Source: a bacterium
GTDB taxonomy: Bacteria; SZUA-182; DTGQ01; JAFGSM01
NCBI GenBank assembly: GCA_049472295.1
Contig: JBLIRM010000002.1
Span: 1-48,800, forward strand
Direction of reading: 5' to 3'
DNA: 48,800 nt
How positions within the stretch are numbered: the stretch's first letter is position 1; every line of letters starts with the position of its first letter. The notes under the pieces are model-generated. The model ran no database searches. It had not been told where the DNA came from and saw only the letters and a program-made list of their open reading frames with translations. The position numbers and the translations under genes are program-made. This document shows positions 11,803 through 48,724 of the stretch, in pieces.

Positions 11803-11917
11803 AGATTCAAATTTTTGATTGATAACGCCCTCCAACGTTTCAAACCCGATTAACCGAAAAGTATATAGGTTTTTTCCCTCTGGATCGATAACACTTTGCA
11901 AGGAGGTCATACATAAA

Positions 11918-12196
11918 ATGGCAGAGCAAAAGAAACCGGTTGCCAATCCTTCAATAGTGCTCAGAGAGGAGTTCGATGACTGGGCCATCCTTTTTGATCC
12001 TGATTCCGGTCATGCCTTTGGGCTCAATCCTGTGGGCGTGTTTATATGGAAACACCTGGACGGAGACCATACCATCGAGGATATATACAAAGAGATCAGA
12101 GCAAAATACAAGGACATACCACATAAAACAAAGAAAGACATCAAAGATTTTGTCCGAAACCTTCTGGAAAAGGGTTTAACGGGATACGAGGCCTAA
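11918..12196 (+). CDS. PqqD-family peptide chaperone (RiPP recognition element)
   Basis: 92 aa from the ATG at 11918, with an AGGAGG RBS at 11901-11906. ILFDPDSGHAFGLNPVGVFIWKHLDGDHTIEDIYKEI...DIKDFVRNLLEKGL matches the PqqD pattern. It ends 7 nt upstream of a radical SAM gene. Confidence 0.8.
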   Translation: MAEQKKPVANPSIVLREEFDDWAILFDPDSGHAFGLNPVGVFIWKHLDGDHTIEDIYKEIRAKYKDIPHKTKKDIKDFVRNLLEKGLTGYEA

Positions 12197-12203
12197 GACC
12201 GAC

Positions 12204-13304
12204 ATGAAAATCATGAAAACACCCAGGTCAGTGGACATTGCCATAACGAACCAGTGCAATCTCCGGTGTACATATTGCAGCCATTTTACAAGCGCCGGTG
12301 ATGTGGACCAGGACCTTCCTCTGAAAGAATGGCTCCAATTCTTCAAAGAACTGGGCCAATGTGCGGTCATGGATCTGACCCTCGAGGGCGGGGAGCCATT
12401 CTGCCGCAAGGACCTGAGAGAGATCATTCAGGGGATCGTGGAAAATCATATGCGCTACCTGATACTGAGCAACGGGACTCTGATCACGGAGGATATGGCC
12501 GCCTTTCTCTCCTCCACCGGCCGGTGTAACGGGGTGCAGGTTTCTGTGGACGGCTCGACCCCGGCCACCCATGATGCAAGCCGGGGGCAAGGCACATTCT
12601 CAAAGGCCATCCAAGGGATCAAATCCCTTCAAAAACAGGATATCCCTGTTCATGTCCGCGTGACCATCAACAAATACAATATAGGGGACCTTGATGACAT
12701 TGCGGATCTGCTTTTGGACGAGATCGGCCTTGAGGATTTTTCCACCAATGCCGCCTCTTATATGGGCCTTTGCCGTCAGAATGCCGGGAATATCCAACTC
12801 AGCATAAAAGACCGCTCCGTGGCAATGGAGGCCCTTTTAAAACTTAACAAAAAATACCAGGGACGGATCAATGCCTCAGCAGGTCCCTTGGCTGATTTAA
12901 TACATTGGTCCGAGATGGAAAAGGCCCGCAAGGAGAATCTGGGATGCATGCCCGGGGGGGGATTTTTAACCGGATGCGGTGGGCCGATGAGCAAACTGGC
13001 CGTGCGGGCTGACGGTGTGATGGTCCCCTGTATCCAGTTGAGCCATATCGAACTGGGGCGGATCAACAGGGATAGTCTCCAGGAGATATGGCAGTCGCAT
13101 GAACGACTCGGGAGGCTCAGGCAGCGGTTTCAAATCCCTTTGAGCCGATTCGACTTCTGCAAGGGGTGCGATTACATGGATTATTGTACAGGGAACTGTC
13201 CTGCACTGGCCTATACCATGGTAGGGGAGGAGAATCATCCCAGTCCCGATGCCTGCTTCAGGCGATTCCTGGAGGAGGGGGGGAGCCTGCCGGATGAAAG
13301 ATAG
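12204..13304 (+). CDS. radical SAM / SPASM-domain peptide maturase 1
   Basis: 366 aa. CNLRCTYC (CX3CX2C) sits at the N-terminus. The C-terminal region has GCGGP...VPC followed by CKGCDYMDYCTGNC (CX2CX5CX3C, the canonical SPASM motif). Confidence 0.9.
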   Translation: MKIMKTPRSVDIAITNQCNLRCTYCSHFTSAGDVDQDLPLKEWLQFFKELGQCAVMDLTLEGGEPFCRKDLREIIQGIVENHMRYLILSNGTLITEDMAAFLSSTGRCNGVQVSVDGSTPATHDASRGQGTFSKAIQGIKSLQKQDIPVHVRVTINKYNIGDLDDIADLLLDEIGLEDFSTNAASYMGLCRQNAGNIQLSIKDRSVAMEALLKLNKKYQGRINASAGPLADLIHWSEMEKARKENLGCMPGGGFLTGCGGPMSKLAVRADGVMVPCIQLSHIELGRINRDSLQEIWQSHERLGRLRQRFQIPLSRFDFCKGCDYMDYCTGNCPALAYTMVGEENHPSPDACFRRFLEEGGSLPDER

Positions 13305-14532
13305 ATATCCGTTGAACCAGATATATTTCTATCTGACCGAGGGGTGCAACCTGCGATGCCGTCACTGCTGGATTGCACCCAAATACCAGACGGAATCCCA
13401 AACCTGCCGGACACTGGACCCGGACCTTTTCCAAAAGATCTTGAATCAGGCAAGGTCATTAGGGATCTCAGGGGTGAAATTAACCGGGGGTGAACCGCTT
13501 CTTCATCCCAGGATCCCCGAGATCCTGGAGATTGTGCGTCATGAGGCCCTTCAGCTCACTGTGGAGACCAACGGGGTCCTCTGTACGCCGGAGCTTGCCC
13601 GTGCCATGGCAGACTGCAAGCATCCTTTTATATCGGTAAGCCTGGACGGCGCCGATGCCGGAACCCATGAGTGGGTCAGAGGGGTGAGCGGCTGTTTTGA
13701 TGCCTGCCTGGAAGGCATCCGGAATCTTGTTAGGGCAGGCCTTCATCCGCAGATTATCATGACGGTCATGCGCCGGAATAAGGAGCAGATGGAGCCTGTG
13801 GTGCATCTTGCAGAGCACTTAGGGGCGTGTTCGGTCAAGTTCAATGTGGTCCAGCCCACAGCCAGAGGGGAAAAGATGCACCAGTCCAATGAGGCCCTGA
13901 GCATTGAGGAGCTTCTGGATCTGGGGAGATGGGTGGAGGATACCCTCTCTGTCTCGACCCGTCTGTCCGTTCGATATTCCCATCCGCCGGCCTTTCGTCC
14001 GCTGGGAAGCATGTTTGGAGAACAAGGAGACGGATGCAGTGTCTGCGGGATTCTGAATATTCTGGGGGTCCTGGCTGACGGTTCCTATGCCCTTTGCGGT
14101 ATCGGCGAGACCATGCCCGATCTGGTTTTCGGCCATGCGTCATTGGACCCCTTGGAGGAGATCTGGAAAAATACCCCTGTGCTCTTGGAGCTCCGAAAGG
14201 GTCTTCCCCAGCGTCTTGAAGGGATCTGCGCTGACTGTATCATGAAGGGGATCTGCCTGGGAAGCTGTATTGCCCAGAACTATTACCGCAGCAAGAATAT
14301 CTGGTCACCATTCTGGTATTGTGAGGAGGCATTGAACCAGGGCATCTTTCCCGAGAACCGGATGAGCACCAACCCATATCCCCATTGTAAAAAAGCAAAC
14401 AAACCTATGAAAGAAAAGCACCATAAAGGCCAAAACAAAAGGGCCTTTACTGGGCGTAACACAGAAAAGGCAGGGATACCGAACAGGTATCGGTCTGCCC
14501 GGAGGGGAGATAACCATGTCCTTACCATATGA
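13294..14532 (+). CDS. radical SAM / SPASM-domain peptide maturase 2
   Basis: Start taken at the ATG at 13294 (MKDRYPLNQIYFYLTEGCNLRCRHCW), overlapping maturase 1 by 11 nt. SPASM motif CADCIMKGICLGSC. A ~50-aa basic, low-complexity C-terminal tail overlaps the next ORF. Confidence 0.85.
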   Translation: MKDRYPLNQIYFYLTEGCNLRCRHCWIAPKYQTESQTCRTLDPDLFQKILNQARSLGISGVKLTGGEPLLHPRIPEILEIVRHEALQLTVETNGVLCTPELARAMADCKHPFISVSLDGADAGTHEWVRGVSGCFDACLEGIRNLVRAGLHPQIIMTVMRRNKEQMEPVVHLAEHLGACSVKFNVVQPTARGEKMHQSNEALSIEELLDLGRWVEDTLSVSTRLSVRYSHPPAFRPLGSMFGEQGDGCSVCGILNILGVLADGSYALCGIGETMPDLVFGHASLDPLEEIWKNTPVLLELRKGLPQRLEGICADCIMKGICLGSCIAQNYYRSKNIWSPFWYCEEALNQGIFPENRMSTNPYPHCKKANKPMKEKHHKGQNKRAFTGRNTEKAGIPNRYRSARRGDNHVLTI

Positions 14533-32245: not shown

Positions 32246-32569
32246 ATGCCAAAATATACCATACCTTGTTTGATTGTAGTTTTGATTGCAGCACTCTTTT
32301 TATCCGGATGTGCAATGACAATGACCCCGGCGGTGGGCATGTTATACACCGATGTCAAAGGCCCCCATGTGGCCACAAGCAACCCCGGTTTTGCAAAAGT
32401 AGGGACAGCCAAGGCCGAATCCATATTGGGGTTGATTGCCACTGGGGATGCCAGTATTGAAGCAGCAATGAAAAATGGTGGGATAAAAAAGGTCCACCAT
32501 GTGGATTATCACACCAGAAACATCCTGGGAGTTTATGCCGAATTAACGGTGTTTGTTTACGGAGAATAA
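32246..32569 (+). CDS. TRL-like family lipoprotein
   Basis: Start at ATG 32246. Lipobox FLSGC. MLYTDVKGPHVATSN...ESILGLIATGDASIEAAMKNGGIKKVHHVDYHTRNILGVYAELTVFVYGE matches the TRL-like family consensus as I remember it. Confidence 0.75.
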   Translation: MPKYTIPCLIVVLIAALFLSGCAMTMTPAVGMLYTDVKGPHVATSNPGFAKVGTAKAESILGLIATGDASIEAAMKNGGIKKVHHVDYHTRNILGVYAELTVFVYGE

Positions 32570-32620
32570 AACAGAAGTGCATTTTGAGGAGACATGATAC
32601 TAACCTATCGCCAGAGTTGG

Positions 32621-32654
32621 CTGCGTAAAAAGGGCTTTTGCCCTTTTTACGCAG
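32621..32654 (+). terminator. intrinsic-terminator-like hairpin
   Basis: CTGCGTAAAAAGGGC-TTTT-GCCCTTTTTACGCAG is a perfect 15-bp stem. The inner GGGC/GCCC core is followed by TTTTT and preceded by AAAAA, so it could act bidirectionally. It lies 52 nt after the stop at 32569. Confidence 0.5.
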
Positions 32655-32906
32655 TCAGCTCAACCATGGCATAAAGCTTTCCAATCAATCCATTGATCAT
32701 ATGGTAGTTCACCGGATTGATCAGAGTGTTCACAATCCGTCCATCGGATAATCACCGGGTATGATATCGACTGAAATTATCTCCCATTGAAATGATGATG
32801 TGCCCGTAAAAAGTCATTTAATTAGTCATTGACTGGTCCATCAAAAGACGACTGTCGACTTTATCCAAACAGGACAAACGCCTTTTAGAAATGAAAGGAA
32901 AGGAAT

Positions 32907-33341
32907 ATGGCCATCTTGAAACAGGTCAGACCCACAGAGCTTTTCATGGGTAAGCTCAGACATGGGGCCGATCTCCTGGAAGAGATTACGGACATATGCA
33001 GGAAGAAGGGCATCAGGCTGGGAAGAATCGAGGCATTTGGCGCTGTGAAAAAAGCCAGGCTGGGTTTTTATAATCAGAGATCCCGAGAATATCAGTCGTT
33101 TGATCTGGATCGCCCCCTGGAGATCACCAAGCTGATCGGCAATATCTCTTTAAAAGACAATCATCCAATGGTCCATGCCCACCTGACACTGGCTGATGAA
33201 GATGGATCGGCTTATGGCGGCCATCTTATGCCGGGTACAGTGGTTTTTGCCTGTGAAATCGTACTGCAGGCCTTTGATGGACCTGGATTTGAGAGAAGAT
33301 TGGACAATGAAACCGGCCTGCCGTTATGGGAAATGGAATAA
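32907..33341 (+). CDS. PPC (DUF296) domain protein
   Basis: 144 aa. GADLLEEITDICRKKGIRLGRIEAFGAV...HAHLTLADEDGSAYGGHLMPGTVVFACEIVL fits the PPC/DUF296 fold pattern. Confidence 0.65.
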   Translation: MAILKQVRPTELFMGKLRHGADLLEEITDICRKKGIRLGRIEAFGAVKKARLGFYNQRSREYQSFDLDRPLEITKLIGNISLKDNHPMVHAHLTLADEDGSAYGGHLMPGTVVFACEIVLQAFDGPGFERRLDNETGLPLWEME

Positions 33342-33566
33342 TTATTCTGGGATCTCCAGTCAAATTCAGTCTCCGGATATGATTCAATTCCGATCCCATT
33401 CTGTGATATATTAATACATGTGACAAATACCCCGATAATTCTCTGCTGTCTCGCTGTGCGTCATTTATTAATCTGGAGGGGATTTGACTCACACTCGTAT
33501 TGATTATGTCCATCGGGGCTTAAATATAATAAAGATTTCACAAAATCAGATGCTTCAAGCATTTTC

Positions 33567-36500
33567 ATGATCGAAGAAATCAAAGCAAAAAACGGGTTAA
33601 AACTCCTGGTTGAAAAAAGGCGTATCAATGATCTGACCGAGATATCCCTTCGAATGGAAAACAAAACAGATTGCCTTTTGCACTGGGGGCTCTCCCGTCA
33701 TGTTCAATCCACTTGGGAAACCCCTCCAAAATCACTCTGGCCCGAAGGCACAAAAATGTTCGGGAGATCGGCCCTCCAGACCCCATTCTTGAAGCAAAAT
33801 GGGGAAAATCGCATCCTGATCAGGCTGGATCGATCAGTGGATCATCCGATTCTGGATTTTGTCCTGTTCTTTCCTGAAGATGGTCGATGGGACAATAACC
33901 AAGGAAGGAATTACCGCATTAAACTGCCTAAACCCGCAGGATTGCCCCCCTCTGATCCCCGAATCCATCCCGGATCCTTTGAATATTCGGAGATTGCTGA
34001 AGAAATCATTCAGGCAGAGACCGGAAGGGATTCATGGACGCTCATGCACCGGTTCAATCTGTGTTATCACTTGCTGGACAAGGTTGATAAACATCCGGAA
34101 GGATTGGCGACCCTTTTCGTATGGTTGCGTTTTTCCGCCATCAGGCAACTGACATGGCAGCGCAATTTCAATACCCAGCCAAGAGAATTGAGCTATGCCA
34201 TGGATCGCCTGACACAGAGGTTATCCGAAATCTATATCAGGAGTGAGCCGGAAAGCCGGGAGTTCATCCGTTTGATATTCACAACTATGGGACGGGGCGG
34301 AGAAGGTCAACTAATCAGGGATGAGTTTCTGAACATCATGCACAAACACAAGATTAAAGAGATTGCCGGCAGCTTTATGGAGGAATGGCATCAGAAGATC
34401 CATAACAACGCCACACCCGATGATATCATAATCTGTGACGCATACCTGGCATTCCTGAGAAGTGATGGCAATCTGAACCTCTTTTACAAAACGGTTGCAG
34501 ATGGAGGCGTCCCCAGAAAGAGACTGGGGAGTTTTGAGCGACCTATCCTGGCCGATCCGGAATTCTATCCGGATATCAAAGAGGCATTGATCCTTGATTT
34601 AGAGAATTATTTAAAGATCCTCAAATCCGTCCATTCAGGGACCGATCTCGAAACAGCCATCGATTCTGCGAGGGATCACCTGGATAAAAAAACATTCGGC
34701 CTGCTCAATTTCATCTGGCTGCACCGCAATGCTCGCCCGGAGAAACTGGAAAACCTTATGGCCAAGATCGCCCAGGTGCGCTCCCATTTGAATCAGCTCT
34801 TGCCTCAGGACCGTGACTCCGAAAGGATCAGGGATCTGATTCTTCTGGATCTGGCGCTCGATGCATTCCTGCGCTCTTTGATCGAGCGGCATATTCATAC
34901 TCGTCTGAGCGGGGATCAATTGGTGGATATGATCGCCGTGGTGGTTCAAAACCTCATCATCTCTCATAATGGGCATGAATTTCAGGCCTGTTTTCATCAC
35001 TGGATGCGATTAAAAGAGATGCCCAACTTTGGCAAAGACTGGTCACTCCATGCTAAGTCCGTCGTGGACAGGCTTCTTCGCACCATTGGCAATTTCAACG
35101 ACCGCTATTACCGCATCATCCAGCCCAAGGCCGAACATCTGGGCAACGCATTTCAAGCCGATGAATGGAGCATTACACTCTTTGCCGAGGAAGTGGTGCG
35201 GGGAAGGGCCGTATTCATACTCTCGATGCTTTTGCGTCACATCGAGCCGAAGCTCCGAAAGGCCGCTAACCTGGGCCAATGGCAGGTCATCAGCCCCGGG
35301 CAGGGGACGGGTCGTGTAAAGATGGTGGATCAATTAAGATACATCCAGGGCAAGACATTTTTGACCCCCACCGTCATTATTGCGGATAAGATCACAGGAG
35401 ACGAGGAGATCCCTGAAGGGGTCACAGCCCTTATAACACCGGATGTGACGGATATCGTCTCCCATATCTCGGTCCGTGCCAGGAATAAAGGCATCCTTTT
35501 CGCCACCTGCTATGATACCGGAATACTTGAACAACTCAGATCATCCAAGGGGCGTTTCATTCATCTCAGATCCGCTCCTTCGGGTGAGGTAGTTGTCATG
35601 GAAGTGCAGGAAAACCAAGAGATTATGCAGGCTTCTGGGTCCAAGGCAGAAAGTGCGAATCCCATCCGGCCGGACTTTACCCTCAATCCCATCCCTTCAA
35701 AGGACTTCAATGACAGACGGGTCGGGGGAAAATCCCTGAACCTGAAAAATCTGGAAGGAAAAATGCCTGAATGGATTCATATGCCCGCTTCTGTAGGAGT
35801 GCCCTTCGGGATCTTGGAAAGGTTGCTGGAAGAACCCGAGAATCAGGCTGCTTCGAAACGGAATCAATCCCTTATACCCAGGATTCACGAAAACCCCGGA
35901 GAGATCCTCGATGAGATTCGAAGGAATCTGCTGGGCCTGAATCCACAGCAGGGATTCATATCATCCCTCCGGCATGTCATGGAAGACAAAGGGATGAAAT
36001 GGCCTGAAGAGTGGCAGAATGCCTGGATGTGCATTAAACGCGTATGGGCATCCAAGTGGAATGAAAGGGCCTATCTGAGCCGAAAGGCCTGGGGCATTCC
36101 GGACAAAGACATCTTTCTGGCCGTGCTCATCCAGGAGGTGATCGAGGCGGAATATGCCTTCGTGATCCATACGGTCAATCCCTTCACAAAGGATCGAAAC
36201 GAAATTTATGCCGAGGTTGTGCTCGGCCTTGGAGAAACCCTGGTGGGAAACTATCCTGGGAGGGCCCTTGCCTTTTCCTGTAATAAAGAGAAACCCGGAC
36301 CCCGGATTCTGGCATATCCCAGTAAAAGCACTGCTCTTTACGGAGGCGGGCTGATTTTCAGGTCTGATTCAAACGGAGAAGACTTGAGCGGATATGCCGG
36401 CGCCGGTCTCTATGACAGTGTAATGCTCCCTCCCCCTCGGAAGGTCCCCCTGGATTACACAAAGGATCCTCTGTTATGGGATGAAAATTTCAGGACGGAC

Positions 36501-36662
36501 CTTCTCATGCACATCTGCGAAATCGGCCTGGCAGTCGAGAGGGCCTTTGGCAATACACCCCAGGACATCGAGGGCGCCTGCGCCAAAGGAGAATATTATG
36601 TGGTTCAAAGTCGGCCTCAGGTGGGTTTAAAGGGGGCGGGGTTTGGAAATGAGTCAGAATAA
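33567..36662 (+). CDS. alpha-glucan,water dikinase (GWD)-like protein
   Basis: 1031 aa. The N-terminal CBM45-like block is LLHWGLS...W..PP...WPEGT...ALQTPF...FVLFFPEDGRWDNNQGRNYRI. FMEEWHQKIHNNATPDDIIICDAYL is almost identical in pattern to plant GWD. The phosphohistidine motif is TPDVTDIVSHISVRARNKGILFATC (His codon at 35463-35465). The ATP-binding PPDK_N-like domain is C-terminal (GGKSLNLKNL...VPFG...WASKWNERAY...GLGETLVG...EGA). This domain order is GWD-type, not PEP-synthase-type. Confidence 0.85.
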   Translation: MIEEIKAKNGLKLLVEKRRINDLTEISLRMENKTDCLLHWGLSRHVQSTWETPPKSLWPEGTKMFGRSALQTPFLKQNGENRILIRLDRSVDHPILDFVLFFPEDGRWDNNQGRNYRIKLPKPAGLPPSDPRIHPGSFEYSEIAEEIIQAETGRDSWTLMHRFNLCYHLLDKVDKHPEGLATLFVWLRFSAIRQLTWQRNFNTQPRELSYAMDRLTQRLSEIYIRSEPESREFIRLIFTTMGRGGEGQLIRDEFLNIMHKHKIKEIAGSFMEEWHQKIHNNATPDDIIICDAYLAFLRSDGNLNLFYKTVADGGVPRKRLGSFERPILADPEFYPDIKEALILDLENYLKILKSVHSGTDLETAIDSARDHLDKKTFGLLNFIWLHRNARPEKLENLMAKIAQVRSHLNQLLPQDRDSERIRDLILLDLALDAFLRSLIERHIHTRLSGDQLVDMIAVVVQNLIISHNGHEFQACFHHWMRLKEMPNFGKDWSLHAKSVVDRLLRTIGNFNDRYYRIIQPKAEHLGNAFQADEWSITLFAEEVVRGRAVFILSMLLRHIEPKLRKAANLGQWQVISPGQGTGRVKMVDQLRYIQGKTFLTPTVIIADKITGDEEIPEGVTALITPDVTDIVSHISVRARNKGILFATCYDTGILEQLRSSKGRFIHLRSAPSGEVVVMEVQENQEIMQASGSKAESANPIRPDFTLNPIPSKDFNDRRVGGKSLNLKNLEGKMPEWIHMPASVGVPFGILERLLEEPENQAASKRNQSLIPRIHENPGEILDEIRRNLLGLNPQQGFISSLRHVMEDKGMKWPEEWQNAWMCIKRVWASKWNERAYLSRKAWGIPDKDIFLAVLIQEVIEAEYAFVIHTVNPFTKDRNEIYAEVVLGLGETLVGNYPGRALAFSCNKEKPGPRILAYPSKSTALYGGGLIFRSDSNGEDLSGYAGAGLYDSVMLPPPRKVPLDYTKDPLLWDENFRTDLLMHICEIGLAVERAFGNTPQDIEGACAKGEYYVVQSRPQVGLKGAGFGNESE

Positions 36663-37500
36663 AAATACCCGGATTCGAATCGGCAACCAGACCGCCTTTG
36701 TGGTCAATAACCCCATGATTCCTTTTGAATATGCCGTACATAACGGCTTCGATGCATTCGAGTGGTTTGCTGACGGAAAGGAACCCGGCAGGGATTTCAG
36801 CCCAATGGACATGGATGAAGGGTGTCGCCATTATATCAGGGATACGGCCCGCACCCATGATATCAGGCTCTCCGTCCATGCCCCCTGGTGGGCTGATCCC
36901 TGCAAATCCAAAGGCCGTGCATTGATCATGAAATCCCTTGCATTTGCAGGGGATATTGATGCTGCGCTCTTCAATATCCATCTTTTTCCGGATAAGGGAA
37001 TCGAGACCTATATCAGGTCCATGACGGATCTCATCAACAGCACTGCAAAGATGGGACTCCAGCTTTCCATAGAAAATACCCCTCAGACACTGCCCGAGGA
37101 TTTCAATCGGATGTTCAAACTCTTTAAAAACATAGGCATCCAACAAACGGCACATGTGGGGATGTGTCTGGACCTGGGACATGCCAATCTGTGCGATCCG
37201 ACACGCAATGATTATCTGAGCTTCATGGACAGGCTGGATGGAGAGGTGCCCATCATTCATATCCATCTCCACGAGAATTATGGCGATCGGGACAGTCACT
37301 TGACGGTTCTTACCGGGCCCTCCAAAAAGGATAAGAAAGGGTTGCACGAGTTTGTGAAGCGGCTCAAAAAACGCAATTTTTCAGGGGCCATAATTCTTGA
37401 GCAATGGCCGGACCCACCATATTTACTCAACCAGGCCCGGGACTGGCTTCGGAGATTGTTCGAAGACGAGAGTTGCCGGTTTGGGCACAAAAGGGAATAA
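36649..37500 (+). CDS. sugar phosphate isomerase/epimerase (xylose-isomerase-like TIM barrel)
   Basis: Start at ATG 36649, overlapping the GWD-like stop. SVHAPW, NIHLF, LSIENTP, LDLGHANL, IHIHLHENYGDRDSHL and IILEQW are typical of the AP_endonuc_2 TIM-barrel family. Confidence 0.75.
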   Translation: MSQNKNTRIRIGNQTAFVVNNPMIPFEYAVHNGFDAFEWFADGKEPGRDFSPMDMDEGCRHYIRDTARTHDIRLSVHAPWWADPCKSKGRALIMKSLAFAGDIDAALFNIHLFPDKGIETYIRSMTDLINSTAKMGLQLSIENTPQTLPEDFNRMFKLFKNIGIQQTAHVGMCLDLGHANLCDPTRNDYLSFMDRLDGEVPIIHIHLHENYGDRDSHLTVLTGPSKKDKKGLHEFVKRLKKRNFSGAIILEQWPDPPYLLNQARDWLRRLFEDESCRFGHKRE

Positions 37501-37520
37501 ACACATCAAAGAAAGGGGGA

Positions 37521-37940
37521 ATGGCGATGAATGTCAAGTCACCAAAATTGACAGCATTCGCATTATGTCTGGCAATGGTTGGATTGTTTCTATCGAAGGC
37601 CATGGCTTCTGATATGATTCCCAGGATAAGCAAAGAAGAACTCAAGGTGCTTATTGACTATACGGATGTGACCATTCTGGATGTGCGCACAGACAAAGAC
37701 TGGAAATCCAGCGAATTCAAAATCAAGGGGGCAGTCAAGGAGGACCCCGGGGCTTTCAAATCCTGGGCCAATGGATATCCAAAAAACCAGACCATCATCT
37801 TATATTGTGCCTGTCCCAATGAGGCAACAAGTATCAGTCTGGCAAAGCAGCTTATGGAAAAGGGATATACAAAGGTTTACGCGCTCAAGGAAGGCTGGAC
37901 AAAATGGCTTAAAGCCAAATATCCTGTTGCTAAAAAATAG
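37521..37940 (+). CDS. secreted single-domain rhodanese-like protein
   Basis: Start at ATG 37521 (AAAGGGGG RBS). Signal peptide LTAFALCLAMVGLFLSKAMA. ILDVRTDKDW...IKGA...IILYCACPNEATS gives the rhodanese active-site loop with Cys. Confidence 0.75.
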   Translation: MAMNVKSPKLTAFALCLAMVGLFLSKAMASDMIPRISKEELKVLIDYTDVTILDVRTDKDWKSSEFKIKGAVKEDPGAFKSWANGYPKNQTIILYCACPNEATSISLAKQLMEKGYTKVYALKEGWTKWLKAKYPVAKK

Positions 37941-37968
37941 TTGTATATCAAGTCATGAGGAGAAAAAA

Positions 37969-38316
37969 ATGCCATTGATCAAACTTCAGACCTCAGTCCA
38001 TATTTCAGATGATCAGGAAGGGGATTTTATCGTGTCCTTGTCCCGGATCATTTCTGAATGCATTGGCAAACCTGAAAGATATGTCATGGTCACCATCGAT
38101 GAAACACCCATCATGATGGCCGGCGAACCCGGGAATGCCGCCTTTGCAGATGTGCGAAGTATCGGTGGGCTGAATTCAGATGTAAAGGCCAGGCTTTCGC
38201 AAAAGATTTGTAAATTGCTCCAGGAATCCCTGATGATTCCGAATGATAGGGTTTATATCAATTTCGCAGACATATCGGCTGATAACTGGGGATGGAATGG
38301 GTCCACCTTTGGATAA
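37969..38316 (+). CDS. MIF / tautomerase-superfamily protein (Pro-1 tautomerase)
   Basis: 115 aa starting MPLIKLQT (Pro-1), then GKPERYVMV...AFADVRSIGGL...RVYINF...NWGWNGSTF. This is the macrophage-migration-inhibitory-factor family pattern. GAGGAG RBS. Confidence 0.75.
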   Translation: MPLIKLQTSVHISDDQEGDFIVSLSRIISECIGKPERYVMVTIDETPIMMAGEPGNAAFADVRSIGGLNSDVKARLSQKICKLLQESLMIPNDRVYINFADISADNWGWNGSTFG

Positions 38317-38468
38317 GGATCTTTTTTGATCTCAAACATGGAAATCTGTTATAATATTGAATAACTTATTGAAGTGGATTTATTCGCCATAGTGAACGCT
38401 TCGTATTTCTTTTTTAAACATATCTAAATCAACGCAATATCAAACTGTTTTCAGAACAAGTTGATTAA

Positions 38469-38533
38469 CTCTGTGTCCTCCGTGCTCTCTGTGGTTTAAA
38501 AATGTTACCACAGAGGACACAGAGAACACGGAG
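38469..38533. repeat. long imperfect hairpin built from CTCTGTG-like short units
   Basis: CTCTGTGTCCTCCGTGCTCTCTGTGGT, an 11-nt loop, then ACCACAGAGGACACAGAGAACACGGAG. About 22 of 27 positions can pair if two G-U pairs are allowed. It lies in the 330-nt gap after the MIF-like gene. Confidence 0.6.
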
Positions 38534-38648
38534 TATTTTGTAAACATTGGATTTTAGCCTGAACCGGTCTATAATCCATCTGAAATCAGTTCGATTATAC
38601 AAATCAACAAAAATTCGTCTTCAGGGGAAAGGATTCCAAGGAGAGGCA

Positions 38649-39413
38649 ATGACTGAAAGGCTTTATAAAATAGTTTTCGAAGGGGAGATCATGGAAGGTC
38701 ATGTCCAAGAGGAGGCTAAAAAGGCGCTTTCCAGGATCTTTCAATGGGATCTGGAAAGGATTGATGAACTCTGTTCACTTACCCCTTTGGTCATCGCCGA
38801 TGGAGTAGATTATCAGACTGCCATGAAATATAATGAGCCTTTCAAGAATGCGGGATTCATATGCAAAATCGATCCTTCTGAAAAGATGAACGCCTCTTCC
38901 GTGCCATCCCCACCCAAAGATCCGGTCACATTAAAAGCTCAGAAGGACGAACTTTATAAATACTTCTATCATGTTTATTCACAGGCAAAAAAAGACACAG
39001 GCAGAAGACACACACTTGTCATGACATATATTGTCATGATCCTCTTGTTAATCTCCTCTTTCATGATTGCTGCTTTTATGGAGGAATATGTCTTAGTCAT
39101 TGGCATTGGTGTCTTTGTTGCGTTTTTTATAGGGATCATAGGGCATCTGATCAATAAGAAAAAAAAGAAAAGTGCCTCTGTAAAGGCAGCCCGATTGTTC
39201 GAAAAATATATTTCTCTGGAAGATAAAGAGAATCTTCCACTCTTTCTCGCAGCTCTGGTAACATGGGCGGAAAATATCCCTTTTTTTGACCATGCGAAGG
39301 AGGAGATGCTCTCTGTCTGTGATGAGATCGCTATTGTCAATTCCAAGGATAACGAGGCGTTCAAAGGATATCTGGCAAAACTCAGCGAACTGGATGAGCA
39401 GAATTCCGGTTGA
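38649..39413 (+). CDS. hypothetical membrane protein (soluble N-domain, two TM, C-terminal domain)
   Basis: Start at ATG 38649 (AAGGAGAGG RBS). The N-terminal ~75 aa read YKIVFEGEI..GHVQEEAKKALSRIF...ADGVDYQTAMKYNEPFKNAGFICKI. Two hydrophobic segments follow, then a K-rich stop-transfer. Confidence 0.55.
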   Translation: MTERLYKIVFEGEIMEGHVQEEAKKALSRIFQWDLERIDELCSLTPLVIADGVDYQTAMKYNEPFKNAGFICKIDPSEKMNASSVPSPPKDPVTLKAQKDELYKYFYHVYSQAKKDTGRRHTLVMTYIVMILLLISSFMIAAFMEEYVLVIGIGVFVAFFIGIIGHLINKKKKKSASVKAARLFEKYISLEDKENLPLFLAALVTWAENIPFFDHAKEEMLSVCDEIAIVNSKDNEAFKGYLAKLSELDEQNSG

Positions 39414-43518: not shown

Positions 43519-43632
43519 ACTGGCAAAGCATTTTTTATTGGCCCTATGCAAAGCGCAGGGCTTTATAAATGAGTAAAAAATAATGAGGATTAAGACTTAT
43601 CTGAATTGAAAGGAGAAGGAAAGGAGAATCCT

Positions 43633-44853
43633 ATGGAACAGATCGATTTTGATGCCTATTCTCCCGCGCAAATGGCTGCGCGGGTTGAAAAGGCAGGGAT
43701 AACAAAGGGGAATCTGGATTTTTTCTCCACTTTTGTGCTTGCCATGATGGCCGGTGTTTTTATCGCACTGGGAGGGGTCTTGTATATCTATGTGATTCAT
43801 GATTCCACATTGAGCCTCGGCCTCACAAAGCTCCTGGGCGGGGTGGTCTTCTGCCTCGGCCTGATTCTGGTCATTGTGGCCGGAGCGGAATTGTTCACAG
43901 GTAACAATCTCATTGTCATGGCCTATGTCAGCCGAAAGATCACCCTGGAGCAGCTCCTTCGTAACTGGTCTATAGTTTTCGCCGGCAATCTGATCGGTTC
44001 CCTGGCGATCGTTTTTCTGATACTCTTTACAGGTCAATGGAGCGCAGGAGGAGCCATGGTGGGCATTAAGACCCTCATGATCGCCAATTCAAAGGTCAAT
44101 CTCACATTCTATCAGGCCGTGTCCAGAGGGATTCTGTGTAACATGTTAGTCTGCCTGGCTGTTTGGCTTTGCTTCAGTGGAAGATCCGTAACGGACAAAA
44201 TCCTTGCCATTATATTCCCTATCACAGCTTTTGTGGCCCTGGGATTTGAACACTCTGTGGCCAATATGTATTTTATCCCGGCCGGTCTCCTGGTGAGGCA
44301 AAGCCAACAGGTGCTGGCAGCCGCACAGATCGCAATAGGGAATGTGCCCGACCTGTCCAGGCTGACCATATCCGGCTTCTTCCTATATAATCTACTGCCG
44401 GTCACCATCGGTAACATCATTGGCGGAAGCATCTTTGTCGCTTCGATTTACTGGTTTGTCTATCTGAGACGTTCCGCAGCCGAACCCGTCCGGCGATGTA
44501 TGACGAGCGGACCTCCGACGGTATCACTGGGCAGCACTGTGGCTGAAGCCGTTCGAGTCATGAAAGAGCATACCTCCGGCAGTGTCCTGGTGGGAGACAG
44601 GGAAAGGGCTGTGGGGATCCTGAGTGAGGAGGATATTGTATATAAGGTGGTGGGTCAGAATAAAAATCCGGCCTCAGTAAAAGTGGAGGATGTGATGAGC
44701 AGCCCCTTGGTCTCCGTGGATATCAAGAGACCTGTATATGAGATTTACCGCACAATGGCGGAACACCACATTCGACATCTACTGATCACGGATTCGGAAA
44801 AACAGGTGGGTTTTGTGTCGGTGAGGGATCTGCTCAGGAACCCCATCATCTGA
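43633..44853 (+). CDS. formate/nitrite transporter (FNT) family channel fused to a C-terminal CBS-domain pair
   Basis: Start at ATG 43633 (AAGGAG RBS). FNT hallmarks are GAELFTGN and LGFEHSVANMYFIP (central His). The last ~130 aa (MTSGPPTVSLGSTVAEAVRVMKEH...VGILSEEDIV...VMSSPLVSVDIKRPVYEIYRTMAEHHIRHLLI...GFVSVRDLL) form two CBS motifs. Confidence 0.85.
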   Translation: MEQIDFDAYSPAQMAARVEKAGITKGNLDFFSTFVLAMMAGVFIALGGVLYIYVIHDSTLSLGLTKLLGGVVFCLGLILVIVAGAELFTGNNLIVMAYVSRKITLEQLLRNWSIVFAGNLIGSLAIVFLILFTGQWSAGGAMVGIKTLMIANSKVNLTFYQAVSRGILCNMLVCLAVWLCFSGRSVTDKILAIIFPITAFVALGFEHSVANMYFIPAGLLVRQSQQVLAAAQIAIGNVPDLSRLTISGFFLYNLLPVTIGNIIGGSIFVASIYWFVYLRRSAAEPVRRCMTSGPPTVSLGSTVAEAVRVMKEHTSGSVLVGDRERAVGILSEEDIVYKVVGQNKNPASVKVEDVMSSPLVSVDIKRPVYEIYRTMAEHHIRHLLITDSEKQVGFVSVRDLLRNPII

Positions 44854-44886: not shown

Positions 44887-45591
44887 ATGTCGGAAAATAC
44901 CCATGGATGGATCAAGATCGTGATCATATGCTTCCTGATTTTTGCCCTCTTAGTTATTGCAGGGGGATATGTTGGGTATCGGAAAGTGAAGGAAAAAGGA
45001 CCACATATTATTGCAAGGTTGATTGAAATATCCGCGGAAGGTATCTTTGTTCAAATCAGACTGCCGGACGAAGAGCAGAGGGCAGCCATGAACGCCATCC
45101 ATGATTTTACCCAGGATATCCGCGAGGGAAAGGTCAAGCTTCAGCAAGGAAAGAGGATCGCAAAGGCATTGAGCGATAAGGCTCTAATGGGGGCCATACT
45201 GATCCGAAGTTTCGAGTCCCAATATGTCCACCTATCTTCATTGGGAGATGCTGAAAAAGGGGCGGCTCATCAGACCCTGACCCGTTTCGCGCATGGAGTG
45301 ATTGATGGTAAAATCCCAAGGGATAGGCTCGATACCATCCTGAATATGATCTCTGAAGACCAGGGAAATAGCAATGGCAATCGCAGACTCAAGAATGCCA
45401 TTTCTGAAGAGGAACTGAAGGATGTCCTTTTGAATATGAAGGATGCAGCGGATCAAGCACAAATTGAGAACCGTGCATACGAGATCGATATTGCGGAGAT
45501 TATTCGCAAAGCCATTAAAAAGGGCATGACAGAAAACAGGGAAGCAGAATATACACCCAGGGATCTTTCTTTTTGGGTATCCAGAGCTTAA
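44887..45591 (+). CDS. hypothetical single-pass membrane protein
   Basis: 234 aa. N-terminal TM (WIKIVIICFLIFALLVIAGGYVGY), helical charged remainder, AAAGGGGG RBS. Confidence 0.55.
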   Translation: MSENTHGWIKIVIICFLIFALLVIAGGYVGYRKVKEKGPHIIARLIEISAEGIFVQIRLPDEEQRAAMNAIHDFTQDIREGKVKLQQGKRIAKALSDKALMGAILIRSFESQYVHLSSLGDAEKGAAHQTLTRFAHGVIDGKIPRDRLDTILNMISEDQGNSNGNRRLKNAISEEELKDVLLNMKDAADQAQIENRAYEIDIAEIIRKAIKKGMTENREAEYTPRDLSFWVSRA

Positions 45592-45626
45592 AAGAGGATC
45601 ATGATACACCGATAGGAAATCCTTCC

Positions 45627-47045
45627 ATGTCCGAGTTACAGACCTTGGTGATTGATCAAGGCACTTTTGCCACCCGTGCCTTACTCCTCGATGCAGAAGG
45701 AAATGTCCGGGCATCCGCCTTCTGCGAGATCGGCCTCCGACGGCTCGGCCCGGATCTGGTCGAGCAGGATGCCGACGAGATCATAGCCTCCGTGGATAGA
45801 GTGATAAAGGCGGTTCTGAAGGATGCCACCATCCGGCATATGCATATATGCCAGGCAGGTTTGGCTACGCAACGCTCCAGTATCGTGGCATGGGATAAAA
45901 GAAACGGCAAACCGCTGGCTCCCATGCTGAGCTGGCAGGATCGCAGGGCCGCAGAATGGCTGACCCGATATCACACGCATGCAGAAAAGATAAAAAAGAT
46001 TACAGGGTTACCCCTCTCCCCCCACTATGGAGCCAGCAAATTGCGCTGGTATATGGATCATATACCCGAAGTAAAACGGGGATATCATAAAGGTTACCTG
46101 GCCCTGGGACCTCTTGCCAGTTTTCTGCTTTTTCACCTTCTGCGTGAGAAACCCTTACTCGTGGATCACGCCAATGCCTCACGGACACAATTATGGAATA
46201 TCAATACGCGTGACTGGGACACATGGTTAATGGATCTATTTGGTGTACCCCATGAAACGCTCCCCCATTGCCTCCCCATCTGCTATCATTACGGGGACTT
46301 AAAGATGGCGGATATCCCTTTAAGGGCAGTGAATGGGGATCAGACCTCTGCCATCTATGCCCTGGGGCGCCCTAAAAAGGATACAGCCATTGTGAATATC
46401 GGCACCGGTGCATTTATTCTTCTGCCGACCGGCAGAAAATTGGTGTACCACCCTACCCTGTTGTGCGGTCTTTCCATGAGCCATGATAAACAAGCAGAAT
46501 ACATCATTGAAGGGACTGTAAATGGCGCAGGCGCCTCGATCAATTGGGCTGCCGAGCACTGGCATATTGCCGATATGATTCAAAATCTATCCAACGGGTT
46601 TGATCGAACAGGAGAAATCCCTCTCTTTATAAACAGCATTGGCGGGCTCGGCTCCCCATGGTGGCGACCGGGGCCGCCCCCGAAACTTGTGGGAAACGGA
46701 GAATCATGGCAAAAAGGTGTTGCAGTCGCTGAAAGTATCCTGTTTTTATTAAAGGCCAATCTTGACACCATGCTCAAGGCCGGCCTTCTCATTAAAAACC
46801 TCCGGATAAGCGGAGGCCTGGCACGATTGGATGGTCTTTGTCAACGATTGGCGGACCTGACACAGATGCCTGTTTACCGCCCTGCGGAAACAGAGGCCAC
46901 AGCCCGGGGCATTGCCTGGCTTGCATCAGGATTCCCACACCGGTGGCCAAAGCCGGGGCGAGGCCGGTCATTCAAACCCCGAGAAGATCTCTCACTCAAT
47001 ATACGTTATAAAAGCTTCTGCCGGATATTAGAGGATGAGGTTTGA
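45627..47045 (+). CDS. FGGY-family carbohydrate kinase (glycerol-kinase-like)
   Basis: Start at ATG 45627. LVIDQGTFATRALLLD (phosphate-1), QRSSIVAWDK, NGDQTSAIYALG and ISGGLARLDGLCQRLADL match the FGGY N- and C-domain motifs. Confidence 0.8.
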   Translation: MSELQTLVIDQGTFATRALLLDAEGNVRASAFCEIGLRRLGPDLVEQDADEIIASVDRVIKAVLKDATIRHMHICQAGLATQRSSIVAWDKRNGKPLAPMLSWQDRRAAEWLTRYHTHAEKIKKITGLPLSPHYGASKLRWYMDHIPEVKRGYHKGYLALGPLASFLLFHLLREKPLLVDHANASRTQLWNINTRDWDTWLMDLFGVPHETLPHCLPICYHYGDLKMADIPLRAVNGDQTSAIYALGRPKKDTAIVNIGTGAFILLPTGRKLVYHPTLLCGLSMSHDKQAEYIIEGTVNGAGASINWAAEHWHIADMIQNLSNGFDRTGEIPLFINSIGGLGSPWWRPGPPPKLVGNGESWQKGVAVAESILFLLKANLDTMLKAGLLIKNLRISGGLARLDGLCQRLADLTQMPVYRPAETEATARGIAWLASGFPHRWPKPGRGRSFKPREDLSLNIRYKSFCRILEDEV

Positions 47046-47497: not shown

Positions 47498-48724
47498 ATG
47501 AAATCTAAGAAGATCTATATTGTCGAGGATGATTTACCTGTTCTGAAACTCGAAGAACACATACTCCGGACAATGGGTTGGGTGGTTAAATCAAGCACCT
47601 CTGCCGAAAATGCCTTCGATGAAATCGTTGCTTTCAAGCCATCATGTATTTTACTCGATATCATGCTGCCCGGAATGGATGGGTTGGAATTCTGTAGAAA
47701 GATCCGCTCCATTAAGGAGTTTGATAACGTCTATATCATCATGGTTTCTTTAAAGGCTTACAACTTCGATAAGGAGATGGCCCTTTCATTCGGTGCGGAT
47801 GGATACATCACCAAACCCTTTAACAGGGAAAAATTCGAAAAGGAGTTCAATGAGATCATCTCCATTAGTATGGTATTTTGGGGAATCAGGGGGACATTAC
47901 CTCTTCCCGGCGAAAAATCCATGAAATACGGGGGCAATACATCGTGCGTCTCACTGAAATTTTCTCAAAATCGCTGGTTTGTTTTCGACTCAGGCACAGG
48001 TATCAAGGAATTCTCCAATCACCTGATGAAAAAAGAAGCAAAACAACGAATCAAGGTGAAGGTATTTATCTCTCACCCACACTGGGACCACATTAACGCC
48101 TTTCCCTTTTTTGCCCCTTTATATATCCCTGGAAATGAAATTACCGTATACGGTCCTTATCAAAGTGACAACTATTCCATGCAGAGGATCATATCCGATC
48201 AGATGTACGGCGTTTACTTCCCTGTAGGGGTCAAAGACTTTGCAGCCCATATGGAATATAAGGATTTGAGGGAAGGAAACTATGATATGGACGGCATCAA
48301 GGTCATGACCAAACTCCTTACTCATCCCGGCAATTGTTTGGGCTACAGAGTGGATCATAAAGGGAAATCCTTATGCTATATAACGGATAATGAGCTCTAT
48401 CCGGAGGATTCAGAATTTTTCATGAAGAGTGTAAGGGAGCAATTGGTCGGGTTTGTCAGAGGAACCGATATCCTGATCCATGATGCCACCTTTTTTGACG
48501 ACGAATATAAGAAAAGGGTCAACTGGGGACATTCCTGTGTGAGTCAGGTGGTCAAACTGGCACACGAAGCGAATGTAAAAAGGCTGTATCTCTACCACCA
48601 TGATCCTGAACAGTCGGACGCTGATCTGGATAAAAAATTAAATATCGCCAATCACCTGATATCTAAGTTGGGATCTTCCACAGAGTGTTTCATGCCAGTG
48701 GAGCAGGAAGAGATTTTGATCTGA
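47498..48724 (+). CDS. response-regulator receiver domain fused to an MBL-fold metallo-hydrolase domain
   Basis: REC: IYIVEDD...ILLDIMLPGMDG...GADGYITKPF. MBL: FISHPHWDH (H-x-H-x-DH) and later LYLYHHDP. Confidence 0.8.
   Translation: MKSKKIYIVEDDLPVLKLEEHILRTMGWVVKSSTSAENAFDEIVAFKPSCILLDIMLPGMDGLEFCRKIRSIKEFDNVYIIMVSLKAYNFDKEMALSFGADGYITKPFNREKFEKEFNEIISISMVFWGIRGTLPLPGEKSMKYGGNTSCVSLKFSQNRWFVFDSGTGIKEFSNHLMKKEAKQRIKVKVFISHPHWDHINAFPFFAPLYIPGNEITVYGPYQSDNYSMQRIISDQMYGVYFPVGVKDFAAHMEYKDLREGNYDMDGIKVMTKLLTHPGNCLGYRVDHKGKSLCYITDNELYPEDSEFFMKSVREQLVGFVRGTDILIHDATFFDDEYKKRVNWGHSCVSQVVKLAHEANVKRLYLYHHDPEQSDADLDKKLNIANHLISKLGSSTECFMPVEQEEILI

Follow-up and report, generated by a model that had tools for sequence, protein, structure and literature searches.

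A bacterial GWD-family dikinase coupled to an endonuclease-IV-like TIM barrel: a candidate cycle of glucan phosphorylation

INTRODUCTION

In the starch literature the alpha-glucan, water dikinase (GWD) is treated as a hallmark of eukaryotes that accumulate starch. Its members include the plant and algal GWD1 and GWD2 enzymes (EC 2.7.9.4), such as StGWD1 (R1) of potato and SEX1 of Arabidopsis. A GWD passes the beta-phosphate of ATP by way of a histidine to C6 of an alpha-1,4-glucan, and AMP and Pi are released. The catalytic histidine of the potato enzyme is His992, and the second of its CBM45 modules is placed beside the central domain; this paper, a structural study of StGWD1 from 2026, nowhere mentions bacteria (PMC13553574). 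CBM45 itself is a module lacking any solved structure (PMC12458248). The phosphate esters that the dikinases add are stripped from the glucan by SEX4 and LSF2 in plants and by laforin in animals, so that degradation can be finished (PMC13666283).

A second group of proteins is relevant here. Endonuclease IV, such as Nfo of E. coli, is a zinc-binding TIM barrel of the AP_endonuc_2 or xylose-isomerase-like superfamily. The superfamily also includes a phosphoesterase that does not act on DNA, CbiR, which is a cobamide-remodelling phosphodiesterase of Akkermansia that is inhibited by EDTA (PMC7733943).

We have analyzed a bacterial locus in which homologues of these two kinds of protein are encoded by overlapping genes. 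It lies in a stretch of 48,800 nucleotides, the whole of which is termed the window. The dikinase is designated P0001, and its TIM-barrel partner P0122.

RESULTS

The dikinase has the domains of a plant GWD in the same order

The features of the locus are collected in Table 1. The reading frame of P0001 is open, and all the motifs quoted from it in the initial annotation are present. Three Pfam families match the protein far above the cut-off of 27 bits that applies to each. These are the Ig-like N-terminal domain of GWD1 (PF23166), the phosphohistidine domain of GWD1 (PF22973), and PPDK_N (PF01326), the last matching from residue 821 onward. Between the first two lies the GWD-specific central domain, corresponding to residues 483-926 of StGWD1 and closely similar to the crystal structures of the potato GWD1 central domain. 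The C-terminal ATP-binding domain aligns over its length with those of plant GWDs, and with that of a second dikinase, P0121. Over nearly the full length, P0001 is 41% identical to both Gossypium GWD1 and Nymphaea GWD2, and 44% identical to the GWD of Picocystis.

Table 1. Coordinates of the features discussed, numbered from the first nucleotide of the window
Feature	Coordinates	Strand	Basis
GWD-family dikinase gene P0001, 1031 aa	33567..36662	+	open ORF and translation; Pfam PF23166, PF22973, PF01326; 41-44% identity to plant/algal GWDs
Single CBM45-type module, residues 4-120	33576..33926	+	PF23166, 77 bits
GWD central domain, residues 143-568	33993..35270	+	phmmer E 1.2e-86 to 9ha9 and 9qvi
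Phosphohistidine domain, residues 571-684	35277..35618	+	PF22973, 127 bits
PPDK_N-type C-terminal ATP-binding domain, ~residues 715-1020	35709..36626	+	PF01326, 71 bits
Endonuclease-IV-like TIM-barrel metalloenzyme gene P0122, 283 aa	36649..37500	+	PF01261, 87 bits; AF2 TIM barrel; synteny, fusion, co-occurrence
GH15 gene	3936-6599	minus	
SDR gene	3103-3909	minus	
FGGY gene	45573-47045		

The domains of P0001 thus run CBM45-type, central, phosphohistidine and ATP-binding, which is the order of the GWDs. The catalytic histidine is predicted to be His633 (codon 35463-35465), within the motif D-I-V-S-H-I-S-V-R-A-R-N, and S632, H633, R637, A638, R639 and N640 are all invariant with the plant and algal enzymes (alignment A3). 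There are also differences from the plant proteins. P0001 has one CBM45 rather than two, and lacks both the transit peptide and a linker of ~200 residues. The redox motif C-F-A-T-C of land-plant GWDs is L-F-A-T-C in P0001. The N-terminus does not resemble a signal peptide, so that a cytoplasmic location is presumed.

P0001 has its swivelling phosphohistidine chemistry and ATP domain in common with PEP synthase, PPDK and rifampicin phosphotransferase (PMC13553574), but in those enzymes the order of the domains is reversed and the acceptor domain is different. Assignment of P0001 to any of the three can be rejected. Their models reach 24-60 bits, where the cut-offs are 598 to 1700, and the match is confined to ~70 residues within the ATP domain. 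Judged from its sequence, P0001 is a true member of the GWD family of dikinases in a bacterium, complete with a CBM45-type module, and it probably acts on an alpha-glucan. The initial annotation was correct on the family, the CBM45-like block and the GWD order of domains. It had also called the prokaryotic members little studied, and this understates how common they are, since no fewer than 294 species genomes and more than 1000 protein clusters contain relatives.

The CBM45-type module

By alignment, the counterpart of this module in plant GWD1 is the N-terminal CBM45 of the two, which adjoins the transit peptide in Gossypium GWD1. Its invariant residues include L38, H39, W40, G41, W50, P53, P59 and T72 (alignments A3 and A4). 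Of the aromatic residues, W40 and W50 are conserved without exception in the alignment, and W108 among the bacterial homologues. The AF2 model is an all-beta sandwich (pLDDT 87), for which the best match in the PDB is the N-terminal domain of the Arabidopsis isoamylase ISA2 (TM 0.65, E 2e-4); matches to CBM21 are weak. Land-plant GWD1 has two modules in tandem, and both are present in longer bacterial relatives of ~1150-1175 aa, while P0001 has the first only and thus lacks the module placed beside the central domain in potato. Single-CBM45 GWDs are also found in algae, and for this reason a protein with one module stays eligible for the GWD family.

The TIM barrel resembles endonuclease IV in its metal-site residues

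The ATG of P0122 is at 36649, so that its gene shares its first 14 nt with the 3' end of the dikinase gene. The protein matches the Pfam family named ‘xylose isomerase-like TIM barrel’, and the AF2 model is a TIM barrel of eight beta-alpha units (pLDDT 86), of which the loop carrying D213, D215 and H217 is modelled at low confidence. The top Foldseek matches of the model are the tagatose-epimerase-like protein MJ1311, ketose 3-epimerases and UlaE; the matches span the superfamily, and epimerases and endonuclease IV are not separable in this way. By hhalign the probability is 87% for E. coli UlaE and 83% for Nfo, to which P0122 is ~20% identical.

The invariant residues are more informative. 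Throughout the P0122 family these are H77, H111, E142, D175, H178, H204, H206, H208, D213, D215, H217 and E251. In the hhalign alignment eight zinc ligands of Nfo (H69, H109, E145, D179, H182, D229, H231 and E261) coincide exactly with family invariants, their respective counterparts being H77, H111, E142, D175, H178, D215, H217 and E251. The remaining ligand, H216, is displaced by one column and lies between H206 and H208, both of them invariant. The four metal ligands of the epimerases are present as well (E142, D175, a histidine near 204-208, and E251). However, an epimerase-type single-metal site without extra histidines is not the pattern of P0122, in which H111, H178 and H217 are also invariant; in UlaE non-ligand residues stand at these three positions. 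The initial annotation had the barrel as a sugar-phosphate enzyme, and this does not agree with invariant residues that reproduce the three-metal ligand set of endonuclease IV.

P0122 shares with endonuclease IV its TIM fold and residues that align with the zinc ligands. Yet it is only remotely similar to Nfo, nothing indicates a DNA substrate, and its genomic partner is a predicted glucan dikinase. In NCBIfam the deoxyribonuclease IV model reaches 19 bits, compared with a cut-off of 244. CbiR is the top-scoring family there (E 9e-10), but identity with CbiR is rejected because 38 bits fall well short of its cut-off of 105, and there are no cobamide genes near P0122 in the window. Since the site that the invariant residues resemble is the three-metal, nine-ligand one of endonuclease IV and not the single-metal one of the epimerases, we infer that P0122 is a phosphoesterase, possibly a glucan phosphatase. 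It is the pattern of ligands that points this way; the fold and the whole-profile scores favour epimerases equally.

The two genes are linked across genomes

How widespread is the association of the two proteins? Of the related loci, 73 extend for 900 nt or more downstream of the dikinase gene, and in 59 of these a TIM-barrel gene follows directly on the same strand. The barrel is free in 26 of the 59 and part of a fusion with a second dikinase in 29; the other 4 are cut by the end of the contig. In the fusions the barrel takes the N-terminal place of the CBM on a complete dikinase, so that the order becomes TIM, central, phosphohistidine and ATP-binding. The TIM-barrel gene was single-copy in all four genomes checked, and in each it lay <3 kb from the GWD gene.

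The two genes also occur together when whole genomes are compared. Of 151 Nitrospirota genomes, 24 carry both, 3 a GWD only, 1 a barrel only and 123 neither. The 24 include 6 in which dikinase and barrel are unlinked. In the phylum of the window all six genomes with the barrel also have a GWD, and the barrel is found in none of seven genomes that lack one. The barrel is not an obligatory partner, because no homologue of it was found at E 1e-30 in seven genomes of this phylum, several of them 95-97% complete, that carry GWD-type genes. The functional coupling of P0001 and its neighbour, which the initial annotation had proposed from the overlap, is supported by synteny, by the fusions and by the joint occurrence of the genes among genomes. 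Plants do not have this barrel, which in the bacterium shares an operon with the dikinase. A complex prediction for the barrel with residues 143-700 of P0001 gave a score of 0.00, and weighs neither way.

Glucan genes in the wider context

Genes for GT5 or GT4 glycogen synthases, a GH57 branching enzyme, GH57-DUF3536 or DUF4912 lie within 8 kb at 39 of 80 related loci. The window lacks glucan genes to a distance of 25 kb from the P0001/P0122 cassette, but elsewhere in the same genome we find glgA (a GT5 synthase), a GH57 branching enzyme that has a BE_C domain and a phosphorylase for alpha-glucan, and a GH57-DUF3536 gene adjoins a GH13 gene. A search for the glg genes had been suggested at the outset; glgC scored above its curated cut-off in a genome of the same genus. 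These data make a role of the P0001 system in the metabolism of a storage glucan plausible, as initially supposed. The hint that had been drawn from the GH15, SDR and FGGY genes fares less well. The genes exist, but the GH15 and SDR genes are 27-30 kb upstream of the cassette and the FGGY gene 9 kb downstream, and they are not conserved neighbours; as parts of the system they are rejected.

A DSP-type phosphatase (PF00782) was not found in the genome of the window, which is only 63.5% complete. A scan of 32500-38700 for promoters and terminators gave counts no higher than in shuffled sequence. No RNA sequencing run is listed as containing the sequence, and the DNA runs that contain it do so in part, with ≤0.31 of the sampled words.

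The second dikinase and the phylogeny of the family

P0121 could have been the split-off dikinase half of a TIM-dikinase fusion. This is rejected, as its identity to the fusions is ~25%, whereas P0001 is closer at 32%. P0121 is part of a small family of its own, in which neither a TIM barrel nor a CBM ever occurs, and two relatives show no conserved neighbours. Neither a quick LG+G4 tree nor a FastTree tree of the GWDs resolves the backbone that separates bacterial from eukaryotic clades, and long-branch joins are flagged at the root. On such trees we base no claim about the direction of GWD transfer.

DISCUSSION

The homology of P0001 to the plant enzymes, the order of its domains, the conservation of catalytic residues, and the linkage, fusion and phyletic co-occurrence of its gene with that of the TIM barrel are all directly observed. 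By homology with potato GWD1 they suggest the following mechanism. P0001 would be a cytoplasmic alpha-glucan, water dikinase that holds the storage glucan by its single CBM45-type module. ATP would be split by the C-terminal domain, and the beta-phosphate passed to His633 on the swivelling phosphohistidine domain. At the central domain the phosphate would then be transferred to a glucosyl hydroxyl of the cell's own storage alpha-glucan, probably that of C6. The ester would in turn be hydrolysed by the translationally coupled P0122, a putative three-metal endonuclease-IV-like barrel, after which exo-acting enzymes could complete the breakdown of the glucan. Together the two proteins would constitute a reversible cycle of glucan phosphorylation.

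Here P0122 would perform the task of SEX4, LSF2 and laforin, with unrelated fold and chemistry. The plant and animal proteins are cysteine-dependent dual-specificity phosphatases with a CBM48 or CBM20, whereas P0122 is a predicted metal-dependent TIM barrel without a CBM. The glucan substrate, the phosphorylated position and the phosphatase activity of P0122 are inferred, the first two by extrapolation from plant GWDs; the presumed substrate is a glycogen-type glucan of the bacterium, in contrast to the starch granules on which plant GWD acts. A kinase fused to the phosphatase for the same ester would moreover need regulation against a futile cycle. A dikinase and a glucan-phosphate phosphatase acting as one cycle is in our view the best explanation of the locus, with chances slightly better than even. 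That P0122 itself is a glucan-phosphate phosphoesterase is a possibility that we place a little below even.

Other roles for the barrel deserve consideration. It might be a sugar or sugar-phosphate isomerase or epimerase, converting a phospho-sugar released by breakdown of the phosphoglucan into a glycolytic intermediate, in keeping with the name of its Pfam family, the epimerases heading the structural matches, the slightly higher hhalign probability of UlaE over Nfo, and retention of all four epimerase ligands. But the five additional invariants H77, H111, H178, D215 and H217 correspond to zinc sites 1 and 3 in endonuclease IV, three of them have no counterpart in UlaE, and there is no obvious reason why a small-molecule isomerase should be fused repeatedly to the N-terminus of a polymer-type dikinase. 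We consider this reading unlikely. The fusions, in which the barrel replaces the CBM in 29 loci, and the overlap of the genes could alternatively be explained if the barrel were an acceptor-binding or phosphotransfer module that presents a glucan end, an oligosaccharide or another sugar to the phosphohistidine domain, by analogy with the pyruvate-binding barrel of PPDK. This seems quite improbable, for the PEP-binding barrel of PPDK is from a different superfamily, the ligand set of P0122 is that of a hydrolytic three-metal site, and the barrel stands on its own in roughly half of the loci and is unlinked from GWD in a quarter (6/24) of the Nitrospirota genomes that have both.

The doubt may also be directed at the dikinase. 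P0001 could be GWD-like in fold but directed to some other polysaccharide or a small molecule, in the manner of rifampicin phosphotransferase. Its ATP domain is common to PEP synthase, rifampicin phosphotransferase and PigC-type ligases, the cassette in the window has no adjoining glucan genes, and the substrate of bacterial GWDs is presumed by extension from plants. Nevertheless the parts that confer specificity, the CBM45-type module and the central domain, are GWD-specific and strongly conserved, glycogen synthase or GH57 genes are found at half of the related loci, and the resemblance to PEP synthase and rifampicin phosphotransferase extends no further than the short segment of the ATP domain. 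We regard a different target as very unlikely.

Thus there is a large bacterial GWD family that occurs beside glycogen synthase and GH57 genes and has its own conserved candidate phosphatase. From the sequence evidence, some bacteria probably phosphorylate their storage glucan. This raises questions of whether the bacterial glucan is indeed phosphorylated, whether that of anaerobes is semi-crystalline, and where the eukaryotic enzymes originated. The route of glycogen phosphorylation in animals is still unknown (PMC13666283), so a simple bacterial system could be a useful model. Compact enzymes with a single CBM might serve as tools for the phosphorylation of starch in vitro. A wider proposal is that barrels of the P0122 type would be a new class of metal-dependent glucan phosphatase, forming with one or two GWD-type dikinases a complete reversible cycle that is widespread in anaerobic bacteria; on present sequence comparisons we find this doubtful. 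If it were true, the carriers would store a poorly soluble, starch-like glucan, and the starch dikinases of eukaryotes may be descended from the bacterial family and not the reverse. The groups named for such a cycle are the Nitrospirota, Desulfobacterota, anammox Planctomycetota, Verrucomicrobiota, Acidobacteriota and the candidate phylum of the window.

A bacterial member of the GWD family

Judged from its sequence, P0001 is a genuine, intact and conserved bacterial member of the alpha-glucan, water dikinase (GWD) family, and its gene, read as a single frame on translation, forms a two-gene cassette with that of a candidate metal phosphoesterase, the TIM-barrel protein P0122. The initial annotation of P0001 as a bacterial GWD homologue is borne out by three Pfam domains and by the match to the central domain of potato GWD1 (Table), and the predicted assignment as a dikinase is a strong one. 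Models of the PEP synthase, rifampicin phosphotransferase and PigC type align with only about 70 residues of the ATP-binding domain, scoring 24-60 bits where the cut-offs are 598 to 1700, and are rejected; a best match to PEP synthase or rifampicin phosphotransferase, named in the initial annotation among the results that would overturn it, is thus absent.

P0001 aligns over nearly its full length with eukaryotic GWDs (Gossypium GWD1, Nymphaea GWD2 and sequences of Picocystis, Cyanidium and Mesostigma) at 37-44% identity, and the catalytic histidine motif is invariant in this alignment. Where land-plant GWD has C-F-A-T-C, a motif that forms a redox disulfide, P0001 has L-F-A-T-C. Its predicted catalytic His633 is the counterpart of His992 in potato GWD1 (PMC13553574). 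In the alignment the one N-terminal module corresponds to the first CBM45 of plant GWD1, the module that adjoins the transit peptide (PMC6243121); within it W40 and W50 are invariant, as is W108 among the bacterial homologues. A second CBM45 module is lacking in P0001, whereas longer bacterial relatives (about 1150-1175 aa) have one. Residues 1-135 are modelled by AF2 as a confident beta-sandwich (pLDDT 87), which among solved structures is matched best by the N-terminal domain of the Arabidopsis isoamylase ISA2; there is no solved CBM45 structure for comparison (PMC12458248). Neither P0001 nor P0122 begins with a signal peptide-like sequence on reading the N-termini, and therefore a cytoplasmic substrate is expected.

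Table. Positions of the genes and domains discussed
Feature	Location	Strand	Remarks
P0001 gene	window 33567-36662	+	one open frame, 1031 codons
GWD1 Ig-like N-terminal domain PF23166	P0001 residues 4-120		Pfam, 77 bits, well over cut-off
GWD central domain	P0001 residues 143-568		E 1e-86 to solved potato GWD1 central domain (9ha9, 9qvi)
GWD1 phosphohistidine domain PF22973	P0001 residues 571-684		Pfam, 127 bits, well over cut-off
PPDK_N ATP-binding domain	P0001 from residue 821 onward		Pfam, well over cut-off
P0122 gene	window 36649-37500	+	283 aa
P0121 gene	G000 contig C100:3835-6504 (= L003:3835-6504)	+	889 aa, outside window
TIM-dikinase fusions directly 3' of CBM45-GWD gene	L046:11482-15006; L079:11557-15099; L043:11032-14844; L036:3277-7785
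GWD-type His-domain genes without barrel homologue at E 1e-30	genomes G001-G005, G009, G013
GH57-GT5 fusion	L057:3045-6149		1034 aa, Acidobacteria MAG
GH15 protein	window 3936-6599	-	887 aa
SDR	window 3103-3909
Pyridine nucleotide-disulphide oxidoreductase	window 1526-2989
Ferredoxin:thioredoxin reductase catalytic beta chain homologue	window 7664-8077	+
Peptide-maturation-like run	window 8541-14532	+
Rhodanese and MIF ORFs	window 37404-38316	+
CBS-transporter fusion	window 43606-44853	+
Metallo-beta-lactamase-receiver fusion	window 47498-48724	+

Distribution and phylogeny

Recent texts hold GWD to be confined to starch accumulators, and our literature search found no paper characterising a bacterial GWD. 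A word-indexed search with P0001 gave 1168 clusters at E up to 0.001 among 8000 candidates scored, of which the best 120 are metagenome or MAG proteins; the organisms named are Nitrospirota, Thermodesulfobacteriota/Deltaproteobacteria and Candidatus Scalindua, and many relatives are already annotated 'alpha-glucan,water dikinase' by JGI. Exhaustive profile searching gave 564 clusters (50% identity) at E up to 1e-30. Within the species-representative genome set relatives are encoded on 294 stretches, the carriers including Nitrospirota, Desulfobacterota, Scalindua, Anammoxibacter, Verrucomicrobiota, Acidobacteriota and unclassified bacteria; the 80 records fetched from these are nearly all MAGs or uncultured assemblies. 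A GWD-type His domain is present in 13 of the 20 representative genomes of the window's phylum, which are all that it has. The named bacterial GWDs group together in a single well-supported clade (SH-like 98-99). Between this and several eukaryotic clades the backbone of the tree has no supported branching order, and when the TIM-fused dikinases serve as root the join is flagged as a long-branch one.

The window's genome, a 2.97-Mb MAG that is 63.5% complete, encodes a second dikinase, P0121. This has central, His and ATP domains with neither CBM nor barrel, and is 32% identical to P0001. Its family comprises about 20 clusters, all from unclassified bacteria, with full-length members of 876-949 aa; one cluster comes from the same assembly as a locus having the GWD and free-TIM cassette (L051). 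P0121-type genes had no conserved neighbours in the two relatives examined. Outside the family it is closest to GWD2-like proteins of algae and plants that have a single CBM (33-38% identity), and in trees P0121 lies on a long branch within an algal clade, beside Rhodomonas. This placement may be real, or may be a long-branch artefact.

The nature of the barrel protein

Among 30 homologues of P0122 the invariant residues are H77, H111, E142, D175, H178, H204, H206, H208, D213, D215, H217 and E251. When profiles are compared, E. coli endonuclease IV matches with a probability of 83%, and E. coli UlaE scores as well, at 87%. AF2 confidently models P0122 as a TIM barrel (pLDDT 86), for which epimerases, UlaE, ASFV AP endonuclease and endonuclease IV rank alike in Foldseek; thus the fold does not discriminate between them. 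At the level of the metal site, eight of the nine zinc ligands of endonuclease IV align exactly onto invariant residues of the P0122 family, and the ninth, H216, is displaced by a single column, lying between H206 and H208. UlaE, in contrast, has non-ligand residues at the positions of H111, H178 and H217. Of the NCBIfam models the top-scoring one is CbiR, which belongs to the same superfamily and is proven to be a non-DNA phosphodiesterase, yet the match falls under its cut-off. From these alignments we conclude that the site is probably of the three-metal, phosphoester-hydrolysing type, and we infer the substrate from genomic context alone. That P0122 might act as a phosphatase is a reasoned but tentative proposal, to which we give somewhat less than an even chance.

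Linkage of the barrel to GWD

The ATG of the P0122 gene, at 36649, lies 14 nt ahead of the P0001 stop codon. Sequence 3' of the dikinase gene extends for at least 900 nt in 73 of 80 related loci, and in 59 of these 73 a barrel follows directly on the same strand; it is elsewhere in two and absent in 12. The 59 barrels are free-standing (26), joined to a second complete dikinase at its N-terminus (29) or cut by the contig end (4). The fusions, 1140-1270 aa in length, run in the order TIM, central, GWD-type His domain and PPDK_N, and occur at about 25 loci beyond the four tabulated. A check of four genomes found one copy of the barrel in each, at most 3 kb from the GWD gene.

An even sample of 151 genomes from one Nitrospirota class contains 24 with both GWD and TIM, three with GWD only, one with TIM only and 123 with neither (Fisher's exact p = 1.5e-23, a value overstated through the non-independence of related genomes). 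In six of the 24 the two genes are on separate contigs or far apart, and the association is therefore more than operon hitch-hiking. In the window's phylum each of the six genomes that carry the barrel carries GWD too, and seven GWD-bearing genomes, several of them 95-97% complete, have no barrel homologue at E 1e-30 (Table); GWD may have a different partner there, or none. Though strong, the partnership is not obligatory.

Links to storage glucan

No glucan genes lie beside the cassette in the window, where the flanks (PCC domain protein, TRL, FHA, rhodanese, MIF, sulfotransferase and others) are uninformative. The GH15, SDR and FGGY genes, drawn into the system by the initial annotation, are 9-30 kb from the cassette and drop out of it. 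Among the related loci, one BLAST cluster is represented in the 8-kb flanks of 39 of 80; the eight of its members that were scanned are GT5 and GT4 glycogen synthases, GH57 branching enzyme (with BE_C), GH57-DUF3536 and DUF4912. The search for glycogen genes elsewhere in this genome, which the initial annotation had proposed, recovered genes for a GT5 synthase, an alpha-glucan phosphorylase and a GH57 branching enzyme, and a GH57-DUF3536 gene that adjoins a GH13 gene. glgC was not found in this 63.5%-complete genome, and exceeds the curated cut-off in another genome of the same genus. For glucan as the dikinase substrate, gene context in the relatives gives good support.

At one locus (L057) a single protein combines a GH57 branching enzyme (with BE_C) and a GT5 glycogen synthase; its gene lies 2 kb upstream of that for GWD.

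Other genes in the window

The rhodanese-domain and MIF/tautomerase-domain ORFs 3' of the barrel gene are in overlapping frames, and the true starts probably lie downstream of the ORF starts; they are kept in at most two of the 80 related loci. The GH15 protein comprises a trehalase-like N-terminal domain, the catalytic domain and a C-terminal DUF547, and its gene adjoins those of the SDR and the oxidoreductase. A run of genes resembling a peptide-maturation cluster encodes an uncharacterised NTP_transf_5 nucleotidyltransferase, an ABC exporter and two radical SAM proteins, one of them of the SPASM type, and includes a 125-aa ORF. Two further fusions join tandem CBS domains to a formate/nitrite transporter, and a metallo-beta-lactamase-fold domain to a response-regulator receiver domain. 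The homologue of the ferredoxin:thioredoxin reductase catalytic beta chain is encoded here by a non-photosynthetic bacterium.
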